NCBI GenBank assembly: GCA_964447765.1
Contig: CAYUTO010000005.1
Location: forward strand, 1 to 63,343
Length of the DNA: 63,343 nucleotides
Direction: 5' to 3'
Origin: an uncultured Gammaproteobacteria bacterium
Lineage (GTDB): Bacteria; Patescibacteriota; Patescibacteriia; Magasanikbacterales; UBA922
Made by a program: the position numbers and the translations under genes. The notes under the pieces were generated by a model. It was not told the DNA's origin. It made no database searches and worked only from the letters and a program-made list of their open reading frames with translations. Positions 2,730-25,201 of the stretch are shown piece by piece (the stretch's first letter is position 1; every line of letters begins with the position of its first letter).

Positions 2730-4208
2730 ATGTTTTTACAGACCAAGCCTAAAGAAGAGAAAAGAAAGAAATTGCCTTATATATTGCTGGGTATTTTTTT
2801 AGTACTGACGTTACTTGGTCTTACTGCATATTACAGTATTCGACATATTGGAATTGAAGGATTTCTCTCGTCTAATTTTGTACAGAAACAAATTACTAAG
2901 CATGTTGGTGGAGCTGAGGGTGATATTTTTGAGCTATTACCAACAGCACTTGGTTTTGATGAGCCAAAGACCTATTTGGTTTTATTTTTGAATAATACGG
3001 AGATGCGTCCGGGTGGGGGATTTATTGGTGTGTATGGTACCGTTCGGGTTACGGGCGGACATATTGAGGTTTTGAAAGTTGAAGGAACCGAAATACTGGA
3101 TAATCAATCTTCACCTGTTAATGTTCCTGTTCCACCGACTCCCTTGTCTCAATATCTGAAAGTTTCGGGATGGTATTTTAGGGATAGTAATTGGTCTCCA
3201 GATTTTAGTGAGAGCTCAAAACAGGGGCTCGCGTTGTATGCTCGTGAAAATGGTGTTGCGGCAGAAGAGATTGATGCGGTTATTGGAGTTACAGCAACAG
3301 TTCTTGAAGAACTTATGAAAAAAACGGGACCACTTACTATTAATGGAATTACGTTTACTCCAGAAAATGTAATAGAAGAGCTTGAGCATGAGGTTGAATA
3401 TAAATTTGTTGACCGTGGAATTTCTCGAAGTGATCGTAAAGGTATTATCGAACCTTTTATGCTTGCGATTATTGATAAATTAAAGAGCGATGTGTTGCGT
3501 CATCCTTTCGAATATCGAACACTGGCTGAAAAGTTATTACATGAAAAGCATATTATTTTGTATGCTCTTGATTCAGATATCCAAAACACTTTACGTGAGC
3601 ACTCAGCGGATGGAAGTATGGTTGATACGAACGGTGACTATCTATTGTGGGTGGATGCAAATCTCGGGGCGCTCAAAACTGATCATGCGATTACGCGCAC
3701 ATTGTCTTACACGATTCAACCACGAATGTCTGCTACGGGTGATCGGTATTATGAAGCGACAGCAACGATGAAGTATGTGCATTCACTACCGTTTGATTGG
3801 AGAACGTCTCGATATCGAACGTACTCACGAGTTTTTGTGCCACAAGGATCTGAATTAATTTCGACTGTTGGTTCAATGGCGACTGATCAAAGTGTTGAGA
3901 GTGGTGTTGAAAAAAATAAACAATGGTTTGGCACTTTTGTTTCAGTTGAACCTCTTACTACTCAGTCTCTTACCTTCACCTATCGTTTACCCGATTCTCT
4001 TGAGTCATCTATTGATCAGGGTCTGTATACACTGTTAGTTCAAAAACAAATTGGACTGGTGGGTGGCTCATTGACGCTCGACCTTGATTTTGATACAACT
4101 ATTCAGGCGGCAGAGATTCCTGAAATTGAATCTGAGTGGGGTGATGATGTGTACCGAATAGATATGCCTTTAGTTACTGATTTGAATTTTGAGGTTACCC
4201 TAAAGTAA
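2730..4208 (+). CDS. DUF4012-like membrane-anchored protein
   Basis: N-terminal TM; YLVLFLNNTEMRPGGGFIG, FRDSNWSPDF, VDANLGALKTD motifs. Confidence 0.75.
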   Translation: MFLQTKPKEEKRKKLPYILLGIFLVLTLLGLTAYYSIRHIGIEGFLSSNFVQKQITKHVGGAEGDIFELLPTALGFDEPKTYLVLFLNNTEMRPGGGFIGVYGTVRVTGGHIEVLKVEGTEILDNQSSPVNVPVPPTPLSQYLKVSGWYFRDSNWSPDFSESSKQGLALYARENGVAAEEIDAVIGVTATVLEELMKKTGPLTINGITFTPENVIEELEHEVEYKFVDRGISRSDRKGIIEPFMLAIIDKLKSDVLRHPFEYRTLAEKLLHEKHIILYALDSDIQNTLREHSADGSMVDTNGDYLLWVDANLGALKTDHAITRTLSYTIQPRMSATGDRYYEATATMKYVHSLPFDWRTSRYRTYSRVFVPQGSELISTVGSMATDQSVESGVEKNKQWFGTFVSVEPLTTQSLTFTYRLPDSLESSIDQGLYTLLVQKQIGLVGGSLTLDLDFDTTIQAAEIPEIESEWGDDVYRIDMPLVTDLNFEVTLK

Positions 4209-4212
4209 TAGT

Positions 4213-5214
4213 ATGCGTAAAGTAGGAATTGATCTTGGTACCACAAATATTTTGGTATATATTCCAAAACGAGGGATTGTAGTAAACGAACCTTCTGTTG
4301 TTGCTATCTCAAAAGAAGATAGGAGAGTATTGGCGGTAGGAGCAGAAGCAAAAGAAATGATTGGTAGAACTCCTGATACGATTATCGCTGAGCGTCCGTT
4401 AAAAGATGGAGTTATTGCGAGTTACAAAACTACGGAAGCGATGCTTCGTTATTTTATTAATAAAGCACTAGGGGGAATTCGCTTATTTCGCCCTGAAGTG
4501 ATGGTCGCCGTACCTGCGGGGATTACCTCAACCGAGAGAAGAGCGGTGATTGACGCGGCTATGGCAGCTGGTGCAAAAGCGGCATATATTATTAAAGAGC
4601 CTATTGTTGCGGCAATTGGAGCTGATATTCCTATTGGCTCTCCATCTGGGCATATGATTATTGATATTGGTGGAGGAACTGCTGAAATTGCGGTTATTTC
4701 GCTGGGGGGAATTGTATCAGTTGGATCAGTGCGTATTGGAGGAAATAGGTTTGATCTATCAATTGCTGAATTTATACGCAGAAAATATGGACTTGCTATT
4801 GGAGAACAAAGTGCTGAAGAAGTGAAGATCCAGATTGGAAGTGCCATGTTTATGGATACCCCGCTCACTATGGATGTAAAGGGGAGAGATATGGTTACAG
4901 GTCTTCCACGTACGGTTACGGTCACGTCTGATGATACTACTGAAGCCTTGCAACATGATCTCGAAGGACTTATCGAGGCCGTAAAAGAAGTGTTGAATCG
5001 TACCCCTCCTGAACTCTCTGCTGATGTGATGAATAAAGGTATTATTATGTCTGGGGGATCAAGTTTGCTCAGAAATCTTGATGAGCTTATTGCGCAAGCA
5101 ATTGGGGTTGCGGCGTATGTGGCTGAAGAGCCATTGCTTTGTGTTGCAAAAGGCACGGGTATTGCGCTTGAGAATCTTGATAATTATAAACGATCGATTG
5201 TGTCGACGAGGTAA
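4213..5214 (+). CDS. mreB: Rod shape-determining protein MreB/Mbl
   Basis: IDLGTTN, EPSVVA, RPLKDGVIA, IDIGGGT, GGSSLL. Confidence 0.95.
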   Translation: MRKVGIDLGTTNILVYIPKRGIVVNEPSVVAISKEDRRVLAVGAEAKEMIGRTPDTIIAERPLKDGVIASYKTTEAMLRYFINKALGGIRLFRPEVMVAVPAGITSTERRAVIDAAMAAGAKAAYIIKEPIVAAIGADIPIGSPSGHMIIDIGGGTAEIAVISLGGIVSVGSVRIGGNRFDLSIAEFIRRKYGLAIGEQSAEEVKIQIGSAMFMDTPLTMDVKGRDMVTGLPRTVTVTSDDTTEALQHDLEGLIEAVKEVLNRTPPELSADVMNKGIIMSGGSSLLRNLDELIAQAIGVAAYVAEEPLLCVAKGTGIALENLDNYKRSIVSTR

Positions 5215-7402: not shown

Positions 7403-8488
7403 ATGAAACGATCGCTTTCATCCATCTTTCTTTTATTCATCGTTATTGTCTTAAGTGGGCAAGCGTGTGTTGTTTTTGGAAGTAAGAAAAATACAGCACT
7501 TGGTCCTGCGGGAGTCTGGGTTACGACCGAGAATGGTGAATCGTGGACGCATATTGTGTCAGTTCCTACTGCTACAGGAGTGGTGCAAGTTCCACAAGCT
7601 GGAGTGTACAAGCTTGTTGATGATCCTCAAGATTCTCGTGCGCTTTATTGGGCATCGAGAGAAGATGGAATTTTTTATACTTATGATGATGGAAGAACGT
7701 GGACTCGCGCTGAAGCTCCGCTAAACACTGGATTAGTATATAGTATTGCAGTGCACCCTAAAGAAAAATGTACTATTTATGCTTCGAATGGAAGACAGGT
7801 CTTCAAAACACTCGACTGTATGCGTTCGTGGACTGAAGTATATCGAGAAAATCGTGCTGAATTTGTTGTGACTTCAGTTTCTATCAATCCGTTCAATCCT
7901 TTTGAAGTGCTCACGGCAACAAGTGCGGGTGATTTGTATGAGAGTGCCGATGGGGGAAATTCATGGCAAGTAAATACTCGACTTAATAGGACAGACATTC
8001 GTGAGGTGGTCTTTGATCAGAATAAAGAAGGAATTATTTATTTAGCTACCAGAGAAAGTGGATTATATCGTACGCGTGATGGGGGAGTTACGTGGGAAAA
8101 TCTTGCTCCTAATTTTAAGGAATACGCAGGTTCTTTACAGTTCCGTAGATTTATGGTATATCCTTCCAAAGCCGAGCAAATTTTCTGGGTTTCAAAATAC
8201 GGAATCCTAACGTCACGTAATTCTGGAGAAGAGTGGGAGCCAATCTCTCTCGTGACTCCTCCTGGAAGCGTCGACATCTATGGATTTTCAGTTAACCCAA
8301 AAAATGATAAAGAAATGTATTACACGGGGAGTATTGGGGATCGTTCTACGTTTTACCGGAGTATTGATGGTGGGGTGACCTGGGAAACACGTAAGCTGCC
8401 TACAAAACAAACCCCTACTGCACTTCGTGTCCACCCTGAGCAAGAGGGGTGGGTGTACCTCGGATTTACGACGATTATGAAGAAATAA
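7403..8488 (+). CDS. Secreted Asp-box/BNR beta-propeller protein with a lipobox-like signal
   Basis: Hydrophobic leader ending LSGQAC; about 7 Asp-boxes (TYDDGRTW, SADGGNSW, TRDGGVTW, SIDGGVTW, etc.). Confidence 0.8.
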   Translation: MKRSLSSIFLLFIVIVLSGQACVVFGSKKNTALGPAGVWVTTENGESWTHIVSVPTATGVVQVPQAGVYKLVDDPQDSRALYWASREDGIFYTYDDGRTWTRAEAPLNTGLVYSIAVHPKEKCTIYASNGRQVFKTLDCMRSWTEVYRENRAEFVVTSVSINPFNPFEVLTATSAGDLYESADGGNSWQVNTRLNRTDIREVVFDQNKEGIIYLATRESGLYRTRDGGVTWENLAPNFKEYAGSLQFRRFMVYPSKAEQIFWVSKYGILTSRNSGEEWEPISLVTPPGSVDIYGFSVNPKNDKEMYYTGSIGDRSTFYRSIDGGVTWETRKLPTKQTPTALRVHPEQEGWVYLGFTTIMKK

Positions 8489-12077: not shown

Positions 12078-15000
12078 ATGGTAAAAGTGAAGAAAAATGA
12101 ACAGAAGTTAGTGAAATCACAATCACGTAATTCTAACAGCAAATATGATTTTGCTGCTTATTGGGTTTGGCATGAATTACTATTATCATATGGTAGACTT
12201 CGTAAAACTACCAAAACTCGCACAGCAAAAAAAGAACTTAATGCTCTTGGTAAACAAATCATGCGTCATTATGTAAAAAACTTTGTTTATTTTCCTGTTT
12301 GGCTGTTTAAATTACTTACACCGTCGTATTTGAAGGGTCCGGTAACGGTGTGGACCAATTTACGCACCATTCTTCGGAGTTCTGAATTTCGCCCTCTTCG
12401 ACTTGCGGTGGTTTCGCAGGCAGTCTTTTGTTTTGTGTTTATTAGATTAGGAATGCTTATTTTTTATAATCTTTCAACTCCAGCTGATGCCGCTACGTTT
12501 GGCTGGATACAGACCACCTGGACTGGGGGAGTCTCGACTACGGCGACAGCGACACATTCGAGTGATCGTACGGGGTGGACTACCTATGTCAGTTCGACTC
12601 AATTGAATACTACTGTTTCATCTGGAAATATCACTATCTCAACTTCATCGTATACAACGACAGATGATAGTAGTCTTTCGACTGACGGGTTGGCAAGTGG
12701 CGGTGGGTTTGCAAATGGAACGACGTCTAGTGTTGTAGTAAGCGGTGGAGATGTGACACTCGGTATTGCATCTGCGGGGGGAGAAATTAATCAGTGGGAT
12801 GCAAGCCCTTATAATCTTCCTGCAACTATCAGTGGTACTGAAGATGGAAATGGAGTAATGATTAGTGATGGGGTTGATGCTTTCTATATCCTTCGTGGAG
12901 GTGGAACGACTGGGTTTTATAAATTTATTCCCTCTGATAAAACAACGAGTACACTTACCTCTGTACCTACCTCTATTCCACCAAACGGTGGTGGTGGATC
13001 AATTGCGCTGTCAGGTGACTATATTTATCTTTATTCTGGTGGCAATAGTAGTGTTAAATTTTACGCGTATTCGATTTCGGGAAATTCATGGACCACTCTC
13101 GCGAACCCGCCAAGTTCCCCTTATGGTGATGGTATTGGTAGTACTATGGCTGTCGATGCTCTGGGAAATATTTATTTTGCAGCAGGTGGGGCGACGACGA
13201 ATTTTTTAAAGTATACAGTAACTTCAAGTGCTCCGTATGGGGAGTGGAGTGTTTTGTCTAACATTGGAAGTTCTGTTGGAAGAGGTTCGCGAGCAATATA
13301 TGATAGTGAGAATAATGATATCCTTATTCTTACAGGTAATAATGGTCATATGATAAGCAAATATGACATTGATTTAAGTGTGATGACTAATTATAGTGGT
13401 GCACCTAATGATCCTGGTTTTACCTCAGGTGCTTCGATGGTAAAAAATGATGATAATGATATTGTATATGCAATTACCGGTCAAAACTATGCATGGCTTG
13501 AGAGATTGAATTTGAATACTGGTACATGGGCTTCAAGACAAACTTCTTCAACGCCTGCTGCAGGAAATACCGTCGGGTATATGATACATAAGCCTGGAGA
13601 AAACAGGATATATACGACATTTGGAGGAACTAGTTTTTACTATCTTCGACCGTTGAATGGAGACTGGATGTTTACGACAACTACCAAACCAATTCCTGGG
13701 TCAATTGGTGCGGGAGCCACGATGATTCGACATAACAATGACGAAATTTATGTATTGGCAGGAGGAGGTAGTAGTGCGATTTATCGTTTTGCGATTAATG
13801 CTGGTACGCAATACACGACTACAGGTACACTCACTTCTGCGACCATTGATCTTAAATATGCTACCTCTACACGGATTTCATGGTCCTCGAGTGCGCATGG
13901 TCAGACTGGTTCTGATCCGGTAAAATTTCAAGTTGCTGCAAATACGGATAATGCTACGTGGAGCTATGTAGGTCCGGATGGAACTTCTGGTACGTACTTC
14001 ACTAGTTCAAATACTGCATTGCCAGGGTCGTTAAATGGAAAAAGATACTATCGATATCGAGCCTATTTAACTACTGCAAATACTTCATTCACTCCGACAC
14101 TTAGTAGTGTTACCTTTACGTATCACAGTTATTTGACCTCTGGTTCACTTGCTTCTAATCCTTTTAATGCTGAGGACGATACTAATGTGCTTGCTGCAGT
14201 CTCATGGGTGGGTAGTACTCCCACAGGTACGGTAATTAAATTCCAGGTACGCACCAGTCCTGATAACTCAAACTTTACTTCATGGATGGGACCTGATGGA
14301 ACTTCTGGTACGTATTTTACTGATAGTAGCGGTGCACAAATGATGCCTGCTCAGTTGATCGATGGCGAAGATGATCGTTGGATTCAGTATAAGGTATTTT
14401 TTGAGTCTGACGGAACAGGTACTCCGATTCTTGAGCAAAGTACGCTCACTTATGTAGTGAATGCACCGCCTGAGATTGTTATTACTAATACTGTCTCGAC
14501 TACGTCTGGTGGAATTGTGGTTGTGAATTATGATGTACGTGATATTGATAGTTCTACAGGTGTTACCGCAGGGGTTGTTGGAGTTACACTTCAGTATTGT
14601 ACGGCGAGTTGTTCGAGTGTGGGGAATGAGGTCTGGGCTACAGCTGCAACCTCGAGTTTGACCGGAACCTTTGGTCCGAGTGTTTCAGTGGATACTGTTT
14701 CAACTACTCAGTATACAAGTTACTCATTAACATGGACCCCGACTAGTTCGTATAATAATCAATATAATGGATCGGATTTTAAAATCCGTCTCCGTGCGAA
14801 TGATTCTGAGGCGGCAAATAATATTGGTGTTGATGAGTCTAATACATTTGTACTTGATACTACTGATCCTATACCAACAATTATTATTGATGGACGGAGC
14901 ACTGCTACTAATACGCTTTCGATTAGTGTGACTGATGATACGATGGCAGGATTAGAAATGAAATTATCAAATGATAGTGATTTGTCTTCTGATGGATTAA

Positions 15001-18000
15001 ATGGGAGTTCAGGTACATGGATCCCCTATGCAACAACCTCGACGTGGAATTTGGGTACTGGAGGAACAACGGTCTATTACCAGGTTAGGGATGCATTTGG
15101 AAATATCTCTGCAAATGGTATTATCTCCTCTGCAGAGACTCCTGAAATTCCTGGAAATTTATTTTTTAAAGATATTTCGAACTCTGATACTTTGGAATGG
15201 CGAGAATTTATTGCATGGCAGATTATTGATGATCCGACTCCTGGATTTGCACAATATGCGATCTATCGTTCAAGTGACGGTATTAATTATACTGAAATTG
15301 CTACTCAAGTATCACGTGTTATTAATTATTATCTTGATACTGATATTGATACAGGGACAACATACTATTACAAAGTCACCTCAGAAGATCTCGATGGTAA
15401 TATTTCGGCGTTTTCGACTATTGTATCTGATGATCCGAATGGGACTGGAGGAACCGATGTGTCTGCACCGACTATTTCAAATATCACGACGAGTTCAGTT
15501 GGGTCTAATTCGATTACCATTTCCTGGGAGACTGATGAAGTATCTGATTCGTATGTTGATTATACAACCGAAGAGGGAAGTGATTTTAGTAATGTAGATA
15601 CGGTGGGTCTGACGACGATGAGAAATAACGCAGCAGGACTTGGTGTTCACACTGTATCTCTCACGAATCTTGCACCAAATACGACGTATTATTTCCGTGT
15701 ACGTTCTCTTGATCCTGATGGTAATGAAGGAATTGGAACACAAGCTCCGAATGGATATGTGTATACGACGCTCACTGGTCCGATCATTTCAGATGTCTCA
15801 GTCGCTGAAATTCGGAATACTGAAGCTATAATTACCTGGACTACTGATCAAGCGAGCGATTCGTATGTAGTTTTTTCCACTTCTTCAAGTTTTACGGCGT
15901 CTTCGACTGTAGGCTCTCCGCTTGCCGTGTCGTCTCATGAAGTTACTTTACCTTCGCTTATTCCAGGTACGGTGTATTATTATTTTGTTCAATCTGGCCA
16001 GGTTACTGATAAGAATATTGTCGAAGGACAGTATGAGTATTATACGTTTGAGACAACTGCGGACCTTACTGCTCCGGTTATTACTTTTGATTCTGAAGAT
16101 GATCTGATTATTACGGACTCATCTCTCGTTATTACTTTTGCAACTGATGAGCCTGCAACCTCGACTATTTTGTATGGTACAAGTGATGAATACGGATCGA
16201 GTGTGATAAATAATAATCTCAATAGTGATCATCATGTGTCGCTTACAGGGCTTCTTCCTGGAACGGTGTATTATCTGAGTATCCAAGTTTCAGATGAAGA
16301 TCGTAATCGATCGAGTGCTTTAGAATTTACTGCGACTACCACTGATAGTGCAGATTATACGGCTCCTATTATTAGTTCAGTTTCTACTCGAGTGGTGACT
16401 GATGATGAGGCACTCATACTCTGGTCAACTGATGAGGGTGCGACGGGTCGGGTTTATTATGGTACGACAAGTTCACTCTATGCTCAATCGAGTAGTTTAA
16501 TTTCAACTTACAATCGCGAGCATGCTATAACTCTAAGTAGTCTCACTACCTCAACTGAATATTTTTATGTAGTTGTATCAGTGGATGCGAGTGGAAATAG
16601 TAGTACTTCAACTGAAAATTCATTTACCACCCTCGAAGAATTATCTGAAGAGAGTGAAGTTCGATTACGTGAAGAAACAGCGTATGCACAAGGTTTGGCT
16701 GATGCTTCTCCGCCTCCAGATTTTGTTGCACCAGTTATTTCAAATGTTACCTCTACAGTCGTGACTGATGATGAGGCTCTTATTATCTGGTCTACTGATG
16801 AAGGTGCGACGGGACGGGTTCATTATGGCACTACTCCTTCATCATATACCGAGTCGAGTGATTTTGTGTCTACGTTTAATAGTGAACATGCGATCACACT
16901 TCATAATCTTGCGACTTCTACACAGTATTATTTTATTGTAGTGTCTGCTGATTCTAGTGCAAATACTTCTACGTCTGCTGAATATACGTTTACTACACTT
17001 GAGACGCTCTCAGAAGAAAGTGAAGTATTACTCCGTGAAGAAACTGCCCGAGCACAGGGTGTGGTGCAGGGATCTGCAACCGTGCCATCGAGCGGTGGTG
17101 GAGGTGGTTCTTCGGTTGATCGGGTGGGTCCCACAATTTCTAATGTTGTCGTGGGAAATATTACCTCTGATAGTGCTTCGATTACGTGGAATACGAATGA
17201 AAATGCAAATACTCTGGTTGAATTTGGAAAAACTACTGATTATGGACGAGGTTCTCTTGATCTTGAAAATACACAGGTACACTCGATTGATTTGGTTGAA
17301 CTCATGCCAGAGACGGTGTATTTTTATCGAGTGAGTTCAATTGATACTTCTGGAAATCGAAGTGCGGGAGTAACTGGATCGTTTACGACTATTTCTCTCG
17401 TGGAAGATATTGTATCGAGCACTGAGGATATTATTGAAGAGCCAGATGAAGAAGCGTCTGATGCAGCAGAACAATTATTCCTCTCTACTATTGAAAAAGC
17501 TGGTCAGATTATCAAGAGTCTTGCTGGTCGTGTGAGTGTGGGTGTGCTCGAGTCATCCTTACTTGCTCAGGCACAGATTATTGAACAATTGTCTGACATT
17601 TTGCCATTACCAATTATTGGTGGACAGCCCGTTGTTGATGCAGGATCGAATTATGCTACGATCTCATGGAGTACTGATAAAAATGCAAATTCACTAGTTG
17701 AGTTTGCGCCTGAAGGAGAGTTTCTGTCTGATAGGACTTATGACCAGACGGTAGGAGAGCCTACGGCTTCTCGAACGGGGCATGTAGTTGAAGTGAAAGG
17801 GTTGCTTCCTGATACGGTATATCATTATCGTGTGGTTTCTCGTACACAAACAGGATCTGAAACAAAGTCTCAGGATTTTGTATTTAAAACGAGATCTCAG
17901 ACTAATGAAATTACGAATTATAATGTGACTGTGCTTTCTCCTGAAGAAGCTACGTTCTCATGGGCAACGACTGTCCCTACTGATTCGGCTTTGACCTATA

Positions 18001-18581
18001 CTCCGTATCGAAATGGGGTACCGCAGGTTGAGGCACGGCAGACGGTGCGACAAGCAGGACTTACTACTCAGCATATTCTCAAAGCATCAGGATTCGAGGC
18101 AGGAGTTCTCTATGATGTGGAATTGCTTGGTACTGACACGGGCAATAATGTGTCGAGTAAGGTGATTAAAGGTTTTTCTACTGAAGGAGAAGATCTTGCT
18201 CCGGTGATTTCACAAATTCAGACTGATGCGGCAATTGTGCCTGGCGGAAAAGAAAAGATTCAAATTATTATTTCATGGCAGACCAATGAATTGTCAACGA
18301 GTAGATTGTTTTATCGTAAAGGATTTGCTGCTGAAGGAATTGAATTTACTGCGAGTACTACTCTCGATCAAAATTACACGAAAAAACATGTGGTAGTAGT
18401 CACCAACTTTGAACCAGGTACGGTGTATCAGTTTGTGGTTGAGAGTATTGATTCAAGTGGTAATACCGGAATTTCCAAAACAATTACTATTCTTACTCCT
18501 CAAAAAGAACAATCAGTGTTTCAGGTGATTTTTAGCAACGTAGAAGACATGTTCTCATGGGTGGGCAAGCTTAGAAGTTAG
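12078..18581 (+). CDS. Giant (2167 aa) surface protein: long leader/TM, Kelch-like propeller, about 10 FN3/purple-acid-phosphatase-N-like domains
   Basis: Hydrophobic segment then ADA|AT cleavage-like site; IYxxxGG...W Kelch-like blades; repeated xPxISxV...IxWxTDE modules; Ser/Thr/Gly rich. Confidence 0.8.
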   Translation: MVKVKKNEQKLVKSQSRNSNSKYDFAAYWVWHELLLSYGRLRKTTKTRTAKKELNALGKQIMRHYVKNFVYFPVWLFKLLTPSYLKGPVTVWTNLRTILRSSEFRPLRLAVVSQAVFCFVFIRLGMLIFYNLSTPADAATFGWIQTTWTGGVSTTATATHSSDRTGWTTYVSSTQLNTTVSSGNITISTSSYTTTDDSSLSTDGLASGGGFANGTTSSVVVSGGDVTLGIASAGGEINQWDASPYNLPATISGTEDGNGVMISDGVDAFYILRGGGTTGFYKFIPSDKTTSTLTSVPTSIPPNGGGGSIALSGDYIYLYSGGNSSVKFYAYSISGNSWTTLANPPSSPYGDGIGSTMAVDALGNIYFAAGGATTNFLKYTVTSSAPYGEWSVLSNIGSSVGRGSRAIYDSENNDILILTGNNGHMISKYDIDLSVMTNYSGAPNDPGFTSGASMVKNDDNDIVYAITGQNYAWLERLNLNTGTWASRQTSSTPAAGNTVGYMIHKPGENRIYTTFGGTSFYYLRPLNGDWMFTTTTKPIPGSIGAGATMIRHNNDEIYVLAGGGSSAIYRFAINAGTQYTTTGTLTSATIDLKYATSTRISWSSSAHGQTGSDPVKFQVAANTDNATWSYVGPDGTSGTYFTSSNTALPGSLNGKRYYRYRAYLTTANTSFTPTLSSVTFTYHSYLTSGSLASNPFNAEDDTNVLAAVSWVGSTPTGTVIKFQVRTSPDNSNFTSWMGPDGTSGTYFTDSSGAQMMPAQLIDGEDDRWIQYKVFFESDGTGTPILEQSTLTYVVNAPPEIVITNTVSTTSGGIVVVNYDVRDIDSSTGVTAGVVGVTLQYCTASCSSVGNEVWATAATSSLTGTFGPSVSVDTVSTTQYTSYSLTWTPTSSYNNQYNGSDFKIRLRANDSEAANNIGVDESNTFVLDTTDPIPTIIIDGRSTATNTLSISVTDDTMAGLEMKLSNDSDLSSDGLNGSSGTWIPYATTSTWNLGTGGTTVYYQVRDAFGNISANGIISSAETPEIPGNLFFKDISNSDTLEWREFIAWQIIDDPTPGFAQYAIYRSSDGINYTEIATQVSRVINYYLDTDIDTGTTYYYKVTSEDLDGNISAFSTIVSDDPNGTGGTDVSAPTISNITTSSVGSNSITISWETDEVSDSYVDYTTEEGSDFSNVDTVGLTTMRNNAAGLGVHTVSLTNLAPNTTYYFRVRSLDPDGNEGIGTQAPNGYVYTTLTGPIISDVSVAEIRNTEAIITWTTDQASDSYVVFSTSSSFTASSTVGSPLAVSSHEVTLPSLIPGTVYYYFVQSGQVTDKNIVEGQYEYYTFETTADLTAPVITFDSEDDLIITDSSLVITFATDEPATSTILYGTSDEYGSSVINNNLNSDHHVSLTGLLPGTVYYLSIQVSDEDRNRSSALEFTATTTDSADYTAPIISSVSTRVVTDDEALILWSTDEGATGRVYYGTTSSLYAQSSSLISTYNREHAITLSSLTTSTEYFYVVVSVDASGNSSTSTENSFTTLEELSEESEVRLREETAYAQGLADASPPPDFVAPVISNVTSTVVTDDEALIIWSTDEGATGRVHYGTTPSSYTESSDFVSTFNSEHAITLHNLATSTQYYFIVVSADSSANTSTSAEYTFTTLETLSEESEVLLREETARAQGVVQGSATVPSSGGGGGSSVDRVGPTISNVVVGNITSDSASITWNTNENANTLVEFGKTTDYGRGSLDLENTQVHSIDLVELMPETVYFYRVSSIDTSGNRSAGVTGSFTTISLVEDIVSSTEDIIEEPDEEASDAAEQLFLSTIEKAGQIIKSLAGRVSVGVLESSLLAQAQIIEQLSDILPLPIIGGQPVVDAGSNYATISWSTDKNANSLVEFAPEGEFLSDRTYDQTVGEPTASRTGHVVEVKGLLPDTVYHYRVVSRTQTGSETKSQDFVFKTRSQTNEITNYNVTVLSPEEATFSWATTVPTDSALTYTPYRNGVPQVEARQTVRQAGLTTQHILKASGFEAGVLYDVELLGTDTGNNVSSKVIKGFSTEGEDLAPVISQIQTDAAIVPGGKEKIQIIISWQTNELSTSRLFYRKGFAAEGIEFTASTTLDQNYTKKHVVVVTNFEPGTVYQFVVESIDSSGNTGISKTITILTPQKEQSVFQVIFSNVEDMFSWVGKLRS
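16395..17060 (+). repeat. Recent 366-bp tandem duplication inside the giant gene
   Basis: GTGACTGATGATGAGGC at 16395 and 16761; GAAGARAGTGAAGT at 16647 and 17013; both offsets are 366 bp (122 aa). Confidence 0.85.
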
Positions 18582-18605: not shown

Positions 18606-18635
18606 TTGACAAAACGCACTGTTTTTACGTATACT
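18606..18635 (+). promoter_or_regulatory. Sigma70-type promoter of the T-box-glyS transcript
   Basis: TTGACA-N18-TATACT. Confidence 0.7.
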
Positions 18636-18643
18636 ATCTATCG

Positions 18644-18787
18644 ATAAGTTAAGGTAATGATAAGGGGTGGCTCCCTTTGAACTTTTGGCTTATATAAGGT
18701 AAAAAAGTGTCCCGACTGAGTCGGGAAACTTGGGTGGAACCCCCGGTCGAATGGCTGGGCCCAAGACCATTAATGTGGTCTTTTTTT
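18644..18787 (+). ncRNA. Glycyl T-box riboswitch with ultra-short Stem I and no Stem II
   Basis: Stem I 18644-18693 with K-turn and GGC at 18669-71; Stem III 18710-26; antiterminator CUUGGG-UGGAACC-CCCGGUC/GGCUGGG-CCCAAG 18729-65; overlapping terminator AAGACCA/UGGUCUU plus U-run 18763-87. Confidence 0.88.
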
Positions 18788-18803: not shown

Positions 18804-20114
18804 ATGTCTCAAGATACCATGGAAGCTCTTATATCACTATGCAAACGTCGAGGTTTTGTTTTTCCTGGAAGTGAAATCTACGGGGGTCTTGCTAATGCGT
18901 GGGATTATGGTCCATTGGGTGCACAGATGAAGAAAAATATTAAAGACTTGTGGTGGAAGCAATTTGTTGAAAGCAGAAGTGATATGGTTCCATTTGACGG
19001 GGCAATACTTATGAATCCTAAGGTGTGGGAGGCAAGTGGACACGTGGCTACGTTTAATGATCCTTTAGTTGCGTGTAAGAATTGTCATGGTCGTTTTCGA
19101 GCTGATCATGTAGATATTTCCAAAAACTGTCCAACCTGTGGAAAAAAAGATTGGACCGAAGCCAAACAATTTAATCTGATGTTTAAAACGTCTATTGGTC
19201 CCTCAGAAGAAAGTGCTAATACCGTATATCTTCGTCCAGAAACTGCGCAAGCAATGTTTGTGAATTTTAAACATGTCGCTAATACCAGTCGAAAAAGACT
19301 TCCTTTTGGAATTGCTCAAATCGGAAAAGCATTCCGTAATGAAATTACACCAGGGAATTTCATTTTCCGAACACTTGAATTCGAGCAAATGGAAATTGAG
19401 TATTTTATCGAAGAGAGCGATTGGGAAAAATTGTTTGAAAATTGGTTGAAAGATACCTATTCTTTTGCTCGAGCATTGGGAATCAAAACAGATCTTATGC
19501 ATGATTTAGAAGTTCCCGAAGATGAGCGAGCTCACTATTCCAAGCGCACGGTTGATATCATGTTTGATTTTCCCTTTGGACAAAAAGAGTTGTGGGGTCT
19601 CGCGTATCGAGGAGATTATGACTTACGTCAGCATGAAGCTCATTCCAAGCAATCTCTCGAATATACGGATCCTGATGATAATAAACGAAAAATAATTCCA
19701 CATGTGATTGAACCTTCATTTGGAGTAGATCGAACACTTCTTGCAGTCCTAGTGTCCGCATACGAAGAGCAGGTAGTGAAAGAAGGGGATACTCGTGTGG
19801 TATTACATCTGAAGCCATCAATTGCACCTTATCATGTTGCCGTATTACCACTCATGAAAAAAGACGGACTTGCTGAAAAGGCACAGGCGCTGCATGTAGA
19901 ATTATTGAAATATTTTAGAGCCGATTATGATGAATCGGGAAGTGTGGGAAAACGGTATCGAAGACATGATGAGATTGGAACTCCGTTTTGTGTCACAGTG
20001 GATTATGAGTCAAAAGATGATAATTGTGTCACTGTTCGCGACCGTGATACAATGACGCAGGAAAGAGTTAAGATTGAGGAGCTGGTTGAATATTTGCAGA
20101 GTAAACTAACATAA
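18804..20114 (+). CDS. glyS: Glycine--tRNA ligase, homodimeric (alpha2) type
   Basis: KRRGFVFPGSEIYGG, LRPETAQ, GKAFRNEITPGNFIFR, IEPSFG, YRRHDEIGTP. Confidence 0.97.
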   Translation: MSQDTMEALISLCKRRGFVFPGSEIYGGLANAWDYGPLGAQMKKNIKDLWWKQFVESRSDMVPFDGAILMNPKVWEASGHVATFNDPLVACKNCHGRFRADHVDISKNCPTCGKKDWTEAKQFNLMFKTSIGPSEESANTVYLRPETAQAMFVNFKHVANTSRKRLPFGIAQIGKAFRNEITPGNFIFRTLEFEQMEIEYFIEESDWEKLFENWLKDTYSFARALGIKTDLMHDLEVPEDERAHYSKRTVDIMFDFPFGQKELWGLAYRGDYDLRQHEAHSKQSLEYTDPDDNKRKIIPHVIEPSFGVDRTLLAVLVSAYEEQVVKEGDTRVVLHLKPSIAPYHVAVLPLMKKDGLAEKAQALHVELLKYFRADYDESGSVGKRYRRHDEIGTPFCVTVDYESKDDNCVTVRDRDTMTQERVKIEELVEYLQSKLT

Positions 20115-23270: not shown

Positions 23271-23343
23271 GCCGTCTTAGCTCAGCTGGTAGAGCAACGG
23301 TTTTGTAAACCGTAGGTCCGGGGTTCGAACCCCCGAGACGGCT
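23271..23343 (+). tRNA. tRNA-Thr(TGT), CCA not encoded
   Basis: GCCGTCT/AGACGGC acceptor, ACGGT-TTTGTAA-ACCGT anticodon arm, TTCGAAC T-loop. Confidence 0.95.
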
Positions 23344-23371
23344 CGTTGATGATAAATTTTTTAAATAGCAT

Positions 23372-23456
23372 GGGTCGATTCCCGAGCGGTCAAAGGGGGC
23401 AGACTGTAAATCTGCTGGCTCCGCCTTCGTAGGTTCGAATCCTACTCGGCCCACCA
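23372..23456 (+). tRNA. tRNA-Tyr(GTA), CCA encoded
   Basis: GGGTCGA/TCGGCCC acceptor, GCAGA-CTGTAAA-TCTGC anticodon arm, long variable arm. Confidence 0.95.
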
Positions 23457-23459
23457 ATA

Positions 23460-23487
23460 AAAAGTCGCTTTACCAAGCGTCTTTTTT
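23460..23487 (+). terminator. Terminator-like hairpin after tRNA-Tyr
   Basis: AAAAGTCGCTT-TACC-AAGCGTCTTTT plus T-run, one mismatch. Confidence 0.6.
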
Positions 23488-23505
23488 CGTATATAGTAAT
23501 GCTAT

Positions 23506-23763
23506 ATGAAAAAACTTTGGTTCAAACGAAAAATATATGGCTGGGGATGGTATCCTGCCACCTGGGAAGGGTGGGTGGTGATTTTGGTGTATATGGGTGC
23601 AGTATTCGCGTTTGCTGCCACTATTGATGAGCAGTCTCCCCCTCGTGAATTAATGTTTACCTTTTTTCTTCCTATTACATTTTTGACGATCGCTCTTTTG
23701 CGTATCTGTTATGCCACGGGTGAAAAACCACGTTGGCAGTGGGGGAATAAGGATAAACAGTAA
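23506..23763 (+). CDS. Small two-TM membrane protein, Trp-rich
   Basis: WFKRKIYGWGWYPATWEGW then two hydrophobic helices, ends KPRWQWG. Confidence 0.75.
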   Translation: MKKLWFKRKIYGWGWYPATWEGWVVILVYMGAVFAFAATIDEQSPPRELMFTFFLPITFLTIALLRICYATGEKPRWQWGNKDKQ

Positions 23764-23766
23764 TGT

Positions 23767-24234
23767 CTACGTTTTGTTTGAAATATCTTCAAGAACTTCT
23801 TCTGGATGATTTGCAGGTTTTACGTCAGTGTAATGTTTGAGAATAGTTCCATCTAGTCCAATCAGAAACGATTCACGAACTATTCCCATATTTTTTTTAC
23901 CAAACATTTCTTTTTCTCTCCATACTCCGTATGCTTCAATCACTTTCTTTTCAGGGTCAGATAGGAGCGGAAAATTAAGATCGTATTTTTCAACAAATTT
24001 TTTGTGTGACTCGGTATCATCAGCGCTTACGCCCAAGACTTGCACATTTTTTTCTTTGAGTTCATTTAATCGATCACGAAAACCACAGGCTTCGATTGTA
24101 CAGCCCTCGGTATCATCCTTGGGATAGAAATAGAGAAGTATATATCTGCCTGCGTATTCGGCGAGACTATGTACGGTACCAAATTGATCTTGGAGCATGA
24201 AATCAGGTGCTGGTGAATTGAGTGGGGGAGTCAT
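23767..24234 (-). CDS. bcp: Peroxiredoxin BCP/PrxQ
   Basis: FYPKDDTEGCTIEAC (PxxxTxxC plus resolving Cys), GVSAD, FPLLSD. Confidence 0.93.
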   Translation of the reverse strand: MTPPLNSPAPDFMLQDQFGTVHSLAEYAGRYILLYFYPKDDTEGCTIEACGFRDRLNELKEKNVQVLGVSADDTESHKKFVEKYDLNFPLLSDPEKKVIEAYGVWREKEMFGKKNMGIVRESFLIGLDGTILKHYTDVKPANHPEEVLEDISNKT

Positions 24235-24322
24235 AGGGTAAGAAATGGTTACTTACTAGAATTATATTTTTAGTATACCACCACTTGCGTATCTGTACAG
24301 TCTTGTGTTAGCGTATGGCGGT

Positions 24323-24886
24323 ATGAATACTGAAGCGTATATTAACGTGTGTAAGGATTTGGAAGATAGCAGGTCTACCGGAAACCCGTATTGGAATGCG
24401 GGTCCTCGGACTGTTGATCTTATTATTTCCTATATACAGAAGTTGGGTCAGTGTCGAGTGCTCGAGATTGGTACTTCGAATGGGTATACCGCTTTGCGAT
24501 TAGCGCCTTCACTTATTGAGGTTGGGGGAAGTATTACTACCATTGAATCGCATAAAGAGCGAGGTGATATAGCAGAACATAATTTTCGATCTGTTGATGT
24601 GGGAAGTATTGTTACTCTGGTGCATGGTCATGCGCCTGAAATATTTGATTCACTTGCAGGGGTATTTGATCTTATATTTCTTGATGCTACCAAATATGAG
24701 CATGTTTCATATGTGCAAGCACTTCTTCCATTGATGAGTGAACATTGTGTGGTAATTGCGGATAATATTCATTCGCATGAAGAATCCATGAAGCCGTTTA
24801 TTGAGTACATGTATTCTTTGCCTGGTTTCTCAGTTGAAATTTTGTCTACTGAGACTGGAATTCTCGTGGCTGAGAAGGAGTTGTAA
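24323..24886 (+). CDS. Class I SAM-dependent O-methyltransferase
   Basis: VLEIGTSNGYT, FDLIFLDA, VIADN; ATG 24323 preferred over GTG 24305. Confidence 0.88.
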   Translation: MNTEAYINVCKDLEDSRSTGNPYWNAGPRTVDLIISYIQKLGQCRVLEIGTSNGYTALRLAPSLIEVGGSITTIESHKERGDIAEHNFRSVDVGSIVTLVHGHAPEIFDSLAGVFDLIFLDATKYEHVSYVQALLPLMSEHCVVIADNIHSHEESMKPFIEYMYSLPGFSVEILSTETGILVAEKEL

Positions 24887-24903
24887 GTGTGCTTATTTTC
24901 CTG

Positions 24904-24932
24904 TTGACAGGAGAAAAAAATTTGAGTATAAT
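24904..24932 (+). promoter_or_regulatory. Perfect-consensus sigma70 promoter for tRNA-Val/Thr
   Basis: TTGACA-N17-TATAAT. Confidence 0.9.
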
Positions 24933-24965
24933 GCTCTCCGCATATTGATTACCTTTTAAAACCAT

Positions 24966-25039
24966 GCGCGCCTAGCTCAGTTGGTTAGAGCATCTCGTTT
25001 ACACCGAGAGGGTCGGGGGTTCGAATCCCTCGGCGCGCA
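24966..25039 (+). tRNA. tRNA-Val(TAC), CCA not encoded
   Basis: GCGCGCC/GGCGCGC acceptor, TCTCG-TTTACAC-CGAGA anticodon arm. Confidence 0.95.
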
Positions 25040-25046
25040 CTGAGAA

Positions 25047-25115
25047 AATGAACAATTAGCAATAAACAATTAACAGTACCGCATTTTGTTAATTGCTCTT
25101 TGATAATTGTTCATT
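25047..25115. repeat. Periodic palindrome, AAyTAAC heptamer family (copy 2), between two tRNAs
   Basis: AATGAAC AATTAGC AATAAAC AATTAAC A; right arm 25087-25115 reverse complement AATGAAC AATTATC AAAGAGC AATTAAC A; 11-bp loop. Confidence 0.8.
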
Positions 25116-25125
25116 TTTCATTCGT

Positions 25126-25201
25126 GCTGTCATAGCTCAGTCGGTAGAGCGCGTCCATGGTAAGGACGAGGTCTCCAGTTCAATCCTGGATGACAGCTCC
25201 A
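25126..25201 (+). tRNA. tRNA-Thr(GGT), CCA encoded
   Basis: GCTGTCA/TGACAGC acceptor, CGTCC-ATGGTAA-GGACG anticodon arm. Confidence 0.95.

Follow-up and report, generated by a model that had tools for sequence, protein, structure and literature searches.

A drastically shortened T-box riboswitch predicted upstream of glyS in Patescibacteria

The leader of glyS in a Magasanikbacteria genome is, judged from its sequence, a genuine and drastically shortened T-box riboswitch of about 115–120 nt. It occupies positions 18644–18787 of contig CAYUTO010000005.1 (assembly GCA_964447765.1; the whole 63,343-nucleotide stretch is called the window here) and ends 16 nt upstream of the ATG of glyS, the gene for glycyl-tRNA synthetase (GlyRS). 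Most probably it is a transcription-attenuating T-box of some 120 nt that is specific for tRNA-Gly and autoregulates GlyRS. We infer that it binds tRNA, discriminates between its charged and uncharged forms and allows read-through in response. It would do so with a truncated Stem I that carries the specifier codon in its terminal loop, and with neither the tRNA elbow platform of the glycine T-boxes nor the Stem II of other truncated forms.

A sensitive search of the window with the Rfam T-box model RF00230 returned one T-box match, on the plus strand at 18648–18766, with 42.7 bits and an E-value of 2e-8 for the local region or 4.3e-6 for the whole window. The model's gathering score of 93 bits is not reached, and at gathering thresholds Rfam lists only tRNAs across the whole window. 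A match confined to the 3′ half had been expected. Instead, model positions 1–219 are covered with internal deletions, including the base of the kink-turn (K-turn), which falls on positions 1–18 and the matching 3′ strand. This coverage with internal gaps indicates that the window element is homologous to T-boxes at both ends and truncated in between. The alignment reduces 76 Stem I positions to 8 nt and two Stem II blocks, of 27 and 13 positions, to 2 and 3 nt. Because it thus deletes distal Stem I and the Stem II region, it agrees with the architecture of the original prediction, a K-turn plus an apical specifier with no Stem II and no distal T-loops. Posterior probability is high at the base of the K-turn, at Stem III and the purines preceding it, at the bulge and in the antiterminator helices A1 and A2.

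The features are collected in Table 1. The promoter, the 50-nt Stem I, the 16-nt linker, Stem III, the antiterminator with its UGGAACC bulge and the terminator ahead of glyS were all recovered where they had originally been placed. The base of Stem I bears the sequence signature of a T-box K-turn. Beyond its bulge, tandem G·A/A·G pairs join 18659–60 with 18679–80 (G79, A80), followed by a U·U pair and five Watson–Crick pairs, AAGGG/CCCUU.

Table 1. Coordinates of the glyS leader, its promoter and its gene in the window, with the pairs of each helix that covary across related leaders
Feature	Position	Strand	Description	Pairs covarying
Sigma-70-type promoter	18606..18635	+	TTGACA-18 nt-TATACT; 11/12 matches to consensus	
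Truncated Stem I	18644..18693	+	50 nt; C-stem, K-turn, 6-bp upper helix, apical specifier loop; from Rfam alignment and covariation	
C-stem	18644-18655 with 18681-18693	+	12 bp, one bulged U	4/4
K-turn, bulged strand	18656..18660	+	3-nt bulge AAU (18656-18658), then G59 and A60	
Upper Stem I helix				6/6
Apical hexaloop	18667..18672	+	GUGGCU; specifier GGC at 18669-18671	
Linker	18694..18709	+	16 nt, purine-rich (A-rich), ending in AAGUG, the RRRxG motif 5′ of Stem III	
Stem III	18710..18726	+	7 bp, 3-nt loop; then AA at 18727-18728	6/7
Antiterminator	18729..18765	+	A1, bulge and A2	
Helix A1	18729-34 with 18760-65	+	CUUGGG/CCCAAG; 5 pairs invariant, U-A becoming U.G in 2 leaders	0/6
T-box bulge	18735-18741	+	UGGAACC, 7 nt	
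Helix A2	18742-18759	+	From Rfam alignment	3/4 (modelled pairs)
Intrinsic terminator	18763..18787	+	8-bp hairpin AAGACCAU/GUGGUCUU (18763-18782), then U7	
glyS	18804..20114	+	ATG at 18804; 436 aa, dimeric-type glycine--tRNA ligase; regulated gene	

The same layout is found in 17 leaders, that of the window and 16 others, here called mini leaders. Their sources are Magasanikbacteria, other members of the Patescibacteria and a lineage in which UGA is read as glycine. Three routes led to them. Scanning the GlyRS loci of 80 species-representative genomes gave a mini leader at one (L036, from Magasanikbacteria GW2011_GWA2_56_11), along with a canonical T-box in Allobacillus (L048) and an aberrant one (L027). 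A metagenome scan used the pattern GGRAAAYTYGGGTGGAACC, drawn from the discriminator domain only so that Stem I was left unbiased, and nine of its 59 loci are mini glyS leaders (L092, L094, L099, L101, which is the same contig as L036, L103, L111, L112, L119 and L131). The third route took the contigs of eight close relatives of the window GlyRS, and all seven relatives at 70–91% identity carry the mini leader (L140–L146). Only the window leader and L140–L146 were thus collected via the GlyRS gene, yet GlyRS lies downstream wherever the contig continues, directly in 14 cases and behind an intervening open reading frame (ORF) in L131. GlyRS identities across the set run from 41 to 96%, and the GlyRS of L119 was deposited as "Patescibacteria group bacterium". 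The ORF in L131 (oriented positions 4108–4482) encodes a QueD-like protein of 124 aa with the 6-carboxytetrahydropterin synthase motif HGHTY, and the leader there may control a small operon.

Rfam itself was of little use in finding these leaders. An E-value search of L027 and L036 gave no T-box match at E<=0.01, which made it unusable for collecting members. At the RF00230 gathering threshold none of five mini leaders passes (window, L092, L094, L112 and L119), and just one of 16 other leaders, which precede thrS or lie on cut-off contigs, does so (L083).

Covariation supports the proposed helices. MAFFT alignments of the leaders (numbered A1–A5, not to be confused with the helices) misplaced the loops and helix A2. 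A structure written by hand on the fifth gave a covariance model, R1, and R1 gave the realignment A7. Since A7 leans towards the structure it was built on, a control with slid pairing partners and RNAalifold were used as checks on this bias. In A7, standard pairs fill 95.0% of cells versus 76.8 ± 1.3% in shuffles, and the covariation score is 0.615 versus 0.233 when shuffled and 0.08–0.12 when partners are slid by 1–3 columns. Compensatory changes across glyS leaders, which the original prediction had called for, are seen in 19 of the 27 pairs, which change on both sides, and RNAalifold independently predicts the same helices. The 5′ strand of A1 and the bulge are fixed by the search pattern, so that their invariance is partly by construction; the protein-selected L140–L146 show the same invariance. 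For Stem I of L099, single-sequence folding was uninformative and the model alignment resolved it.

When all collected loci are searched with R1, the 17 mini leaders score 63–105 bits and the T-boxes upstream of thrS, described below, 16–56 bits. This clear separation favors the proposal of a distinct minimal T-box class. The Parcubacteria glyS leader L027 (2546–2920) scores 14.5 bits. It has the UGGAACC bulge, an A2 interrupted by about 170 nt, no recognisable K-turn and an upstream hairpin, AAGG-UUUGGCAG-CCUU.

The K-turn GA is invariant on both strands in all 17 leaders, the K-turn bulge is 3 nt long in 16/17, the pair after the tandem G·A (3b·3n) is non-Watson–Crick in 10/17, and pairing in the C-stem reaches 98.5%. 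The triplet that stands one base short of the loop's 3′ end is GGC in 16 leaders and GGA in the other, both glycine codons ahead of a GlyRS gene. The apical GGC and the K-turn are therefore kept in homologous leaders, as had been anticipated. The codon sits in a terminal rather than an internal loop, with no S-turn. The base before it is U in 15/17, and the base after it is A in 11 leaders, U in three (the window among them), G in two and C in one, hence a purine in 13/17. The loop closing pair varies (G-C in eight, U-A in five, others in four), as do the other loop bases. The loops read GUGGCU (window, L140, L141), GUGGCA (L142, L144, L145, L111), UUGGCA (L143), UUGGCC (L146), AAGGCA (L101), GUGGCG (L092), CAGGCA (L103), CUGGCA (L131), UUUGGCA (L119), UUUGGCG (L112), GAUUGGCA (L094) and UCUGGAAAA (L099).

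The loop had originally been drawn as a UGGC tetraloop closed by G67-U72. Relatives read G/A, U/C, A/A, G/G or C/A at those positions, and since they are not kept complementary, the loop is better described as a hexaloop of 6 nt, NNGGCN. In the class as a whole, Stem I ends at most in a loop of 6–9 nt on a helix of 5–7 bp, with no distal AG bulge and no T-loop platform formed with an apical loop.

The sole leader with GGA in the loop, L099, deserves separate mention. Its GlyRS gene (7791–7874 on the minus strand and the rest) contains 12 in-frame TGA codons, four of which align with glycines of the window GlyRS, and ends in TAA TAA. These attributes indicate that the contig is from a lineage reading UGA as glycine (genetic code 25). 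The specifier remains a glycine codon in this lineage.

In the window, TAAGGTAA occurs twice, in the 5′ strand of the C-stem (18650–18657) and in the linker (18695–18702), and an alternative fold could form if the second copy paired with the C-stem 3′ strand. In L142, GGCA in the linker is likewise complementary to UGCC of the 3′ strand of its C-stem.

The linker measures 12–26 nt across the class. A cryptic Stem II within it was considered and rejected, the linker being short, unpaired and not conserved in sequence between clades. In the window the 16 unpaired nt between Stem I and Stem III hold neither the Stem II S-turn nor the Stem IIA/B pseudoknot that characterize class II T-boxes.

Bacterial tRNA-Gly has U73, which fits the A of UGGA in the bulge. 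The discriminator domain is present, in the order AAGUG, Stem III, AA, CUUGGG, UGGAACC, A2 and CCCAAG, and matches the RRRxG-Stem III-AA motif defined in earlier work (PMC7583486), with UGGAACC as the conserved glycyl bulge (PMC11404447). In L092 (2443–2509) the A2 loop carries an insertion of about 50 nt between intact flanking helices, which suggests that this loop tolerates large insertions.

Antiterminator and terminator compete through a shared AAG, with which the 3′ strand of A1 ends and the terminator begins. An AAG/GAG overlap and AC...GUCUU with the U-run recur in 15/17 leaders, where the hairpin is followed by U6–U7, and this conservation supports the transcriptional mode of action that had been proposed. 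The overlap exceeds 3 nt in L094 and L099, and in L099 it takes in all 6 nt of the A1 3′ strand. The two structures had been called mutually exclusive. They do share AAG, but in the window they exclude one another over 3 bp only. AAG can pair with either of two CUU partners, at 18729–31 or at 18780–82. With the antiterminator formed beside the upper 5 bp of the terminator, the computed energy is −33.6 kcal/mol; with the terminator complete, together with GGG/CCC and A2, it is −34.2 kcal/mol, so that the two states are nearly isoenergetic. On these calculations the switch would thus be a 3-bp toggle, close to balance, where the base of the terminator stem meets the U-run. In intrinsic terminators it is at this end of the stem that full closure counts most for termination.

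Leaders of a second synthetase gene show the same relationship between loop codon and gene. The remaining pattern matches precede the threonyl-tRNA synthetase (ThrRS) gene, thrS, wherever the gene is on the contig (L083, L088, L104, L105, L116, L123, L125, L133 and L136). Most of these leaders have hairpin loops reading YUACCAA, the threonine codon ACC flanked by U and A. With ACC ahead of ThrRS and GGC or GGA ahead of GlyRS, the loop codon follows the synthetase encoded downstream. Its usual setting in either set of leaders is U-codon-A, complementary to tRNA positions 33–37, and the additional U and A could pair with positions 37 and 33. The tRNA-Thr(GGU) of the window has U73 followed by an encoded CCA, which fits the UGGA bulge. 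Both tRNA-Thr genes in the window have U73, and CCA is encoded only in the GGU isoacceptor.

Loops of the YUACCAA type lie within the roughly 200 nt that precede UGGAACC in L121, L123, L090, L136, L116, L082, L098, L105, L122, L125 and L088. Leaders such as L121 and L123, from Patescibacteria-like metagenome contigs, resemble the glyS mini leaders. They share the UGGAACC bulge, the discriminator domain and a K-turn with a short helix (4 bp, with a 9-nt loop, ACUACCAAC) that presents the codon as U-codon-A (UACCA). Unlike the glyS mini leaders, the thrS leaders have more between Stem I and Stem III, which is one extra hairpin in L121 and L123 and a multi-hairpin junction in L090, L136, L116 and L082. 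They look like a second unannotated class of reduced T-boxes, of which we know of no published description.

A mechanism can be proposed for the glyS leader. Transcription would start at about 18643, and Stem I would fold first into the K-turn and then the 6-bp helix, with the hexaloop displaying GGC. The GCC anticodon of tRNA-Gly would pair with the loop, and the flanking U, with the A found in most relatives, could lengthen this helix in the direction of A37 and U33. Stem III and the antiterminator would be turned back by the K-turn and the 16-nt linker to face the tRNA acceptor end, where the 3′-UCCA of an uncharged tRNA would pair with UGGA in the bulge and stabilize helix A1. Once stabilized, A1 would keep AAG (18763–65) on CUU (18729–31), so that the bottom 3 bp of the terminator by the U-run could not close and RNA polymerase would read into glyS. 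With charged tRNA, or none, AAG would shift to CUU at 18780–82, the 8-bp terminator would be completed and transcription would stop. Given that the element controls GlyRS, the signal sensed would be the charging state of tRNA-Gly; that it reports on host-supplied glycine in an auxotroph, as originally proposed, would be a speculative extension.

The closest studied relatives by function are the class I glycine T-boxes of Firmicutes glyQS and glyS (Bacillus subtilis, Geobacillus kaustophilus and Oceanobacillus iheyensis, with L048 from Allobacillus halotolerans as the example in our set), which act on transcription. They share with the mini leader UGGAACC, the absence of Stem II, a purine-rich single-stranded linker of about 14–16 nt, RRRxG-Stem III-AA, an intrinsic terminator, regulation of GlyRS and even the position of GGC, which a single base separates from the 3′ strand of the helix above the K-turn. 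In contrast, their Stem I is about 100 nt long, with an internal specifier loop (S-turn), an AG bulge and a distal loop, where the mini leader has a 6-nt hairpin loop. The glycine T-boxes lack Stem II and stack a double T-loop platform at the end of this long Stem I on the tRNA elbow (PMC7583486, PMC6197855, PMC11297988, PMC11404447). In L048 the terminator overlaps the whole 3′ half of the antiterminator, compared with 3 nt in the window.

By the shape of Stem I, the closest relatives are the class II "ultrashort" T-boxes of actinobacterial ileS (Mycobacterium tuberculosis and Nocardia farcinica). Like the mini leader, they have a K-turn and a short helix, a truncated Stem I with the specifier in its terminal loop and no elbow platform. 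While these T-boxes read AUC, keep Stem II (an S-turn purine string) with a Stem IIA/B pseudoknot essential for tRNA binding and sequester the ribosome-binding site, the mini leader reads GGC, has neither element and carries a terminator with a U-run. Published work describes the ileS forms as having a truncated Stem I, requiring Stem II and the pseudoknot, and acting on translation (PMC7583486, PMC11297988). From the features in the sequence, the mini class joins both known reductions, and adds a change in the A2 pair and a short terminator overlap.

How few contacts are enough is less certain than the assignment as a T-box. The balance tips slightly towards a natural T-box that uses two short contacts only, in which a 6-nt kissing loop meets the anticodon and the UGGA bulge meets the tRNA 3′ end, with no elbow platform, Stem II or protein, and that reads charging without a G·U pair in A2. 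The glycine codon–anticodon pair is all G-C, the published reason why glycine T-boxes dispense with Stem II (PMC7583486). Several points weigh against the tRNA-sensing reading in general. For the glyQS platform, one point mutation costs about 50-fold in first-step binding (PMC6197855), and with a truncated Stem I lacking Stem II, tRNA binding is barely detectable (PMC7583486). The G·U wobble at the base of A2 has been described as the main steric sensor of the 3′-aminoacyl group (PMC7583486, PMC6197855, PMC11297988, PMC11404447); it is present in L048 and absent in the window leader, where the pair is C-G. Across the 17 leaders this pair is C-G in seven, G-C in three, U-A in three, A-U in two, G·U in one and U·G in one. 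The terminator competes for just 3 bp of the antiterminator. Distribution is patchy, the mini leader being absent from the GlyRS relative at 66% identity (L147) and from L030 and L059, at 77–78%. Finally, ARAGORN found no tRNA-Gly gene in the window or the collected related loci; its batch run over all loci listed just 19 tRNAs, below the per-locus runs, and is perhaps incomplete.

The weak binding of truncated forms and the 50-fold platform effect would also fit the same T-box working with a helper, the RNA alone being too weak during transcription. An L7Ae-family K-turn-binding protein could play this role, or GlyRS itself could clamp Stem I to the tRNA. No part of the mini Stem I is conserved more strictly than the K-turn, and L7Ae-family proteins such as YbxF may stabilize T-box K-turns (PMC7583486). 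However, the leader shows no hint of a protein site beyond the K-turn, UGGCA pairing with tRNA positions 33–37 in a loop–loop contact of at most 5 bp may suffice, and the all-GC glycine pair already lets glycine T-boxes omit Stem II (PMC7583486). Dependence on a helper therefore seems unlikely, though it is the best of the alternatives.

It is considerably less probable that the leader is a decayed relic that no longer senses tRNA, left as a constitutive partial terminator or as an attenuator responding to NTP levels or RNA polymerase pausing. The loss of three important features (platform, Stem II and the A2 G·U pair), a score well below the Rfam threshold and the disappearance of the leader from close lineages are what decay might leave behind. 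A relic would not be expected to look as it does in other respects, however. A glycine codon at a fixed loop position, UGGAACC, the RRRxG/AA purines and fully compensated helices have been kept across the full range of GlyRS divergence, which points to purifying selection on the codon, the bulge and the purine motifs, and the change from GGC to GGA in the UGA-reading lineage stays within glycine.

The least probable alternative is control of translation or a protein operator in the manner of Escherichia coli thrS, with GlyRS binding an anticodon-arm-like hairpin or the ribosome-binding site hidden. A synthetase that regulates itself through its own leader is a known arrangement. The truncated Stem I T-boxes of Actinobacteria act on translation (PMC7583486, PMC11297988), but the terminator hairpin with U6–U7 is conserved in 15/17 leaders, ending 16 nt before the ATG in the window, and no Shine–Dalgarno sequence sequestered by the 3′ helix, as in the class II sequestrator, is seen in the sequence. 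The idea of the hairpin as a mimic of the tRNA anticodon arm for GlyRS was set aside on the loop itself, which carries the codon GGC and not the anticodon GCC.

The promoter places the predicted transcript start near the first base of Stem I, and a TTGAC-type −35 box is found at the same position in most related leaders. Against NF003211, the NCBIfam model for glycine--tRNA ligase, the glyS product reaches 631 bits, and it shares 96% identity with a protein whose name assigns it to Candidatus Magasanikbacteria. Upstream, a 2167-aa ORF (12078–18581) ends 63 nt ahead of the T-box transcript. Its homologues in related contigs have fn3 and Pur_ac_phosph_N domain matches, and it probably encodes a large surface protein. 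L141, L143 and L144 keep the order giant ORF, glyS and M16 peptidase, and so probably do L140 and L142, where the upstream ORFs have no domain record. A cluster of tRNA-Thr(UGU) and tRNA-Tyr lies a few kb 3′ of glyS in the window (23271–25201), L101 (4903–9344) and L119 (5687–6255), which indicates conserved synteny.

Literature searches found no T-boxes described in Patescibacteria or the Candidate Phyla Radiation, nor any T-box without both the platform and Stem II; TBDB was not queried, so prior cataloguing is possible. For class I, TBDB relied on RF00230, and its search for class II was limited to Actinobacteria or to hits already made for class I. Because the Rfam threshold misses the mini leaders tried and nearly all the other leaders, T-box censuses outside Gram-positive bacteria are likely underestimates.

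Work on T-boxes has held that anticodon pairing alone is too weak unless backed by the platform of Stem I or by the purine string of Stem II, and the mini class has neither. It also lacks the G·U pair to which aminoacyl sensing has been assigned, and offers a natural test of the minimum RNA needed to read both the identity and the charging of a tRNA. A leader of about 120 nt is also a compact scaffold for engineered tRNA-responsive switches. If two contacts do suffice, no RNA sensor of tRNA aminoacylation smaller than this one, of about 115–120 nt, would be known, and the accessory domains of T-boxes would be dispensable when the codon–anticodon pair is all G-C. In Patescibacteria, with their small genomes and few recognised regulators, tRNA sensing would appear to serve the autoregulation of GlyRS at least, and apparently of ThrRS as well. 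Taken with the thrS leaders that carry the codon in an apical loop, the two-contact glyS leaders would mean that Patescibacteria hold a reduced T-box family unseen by standard annotation.

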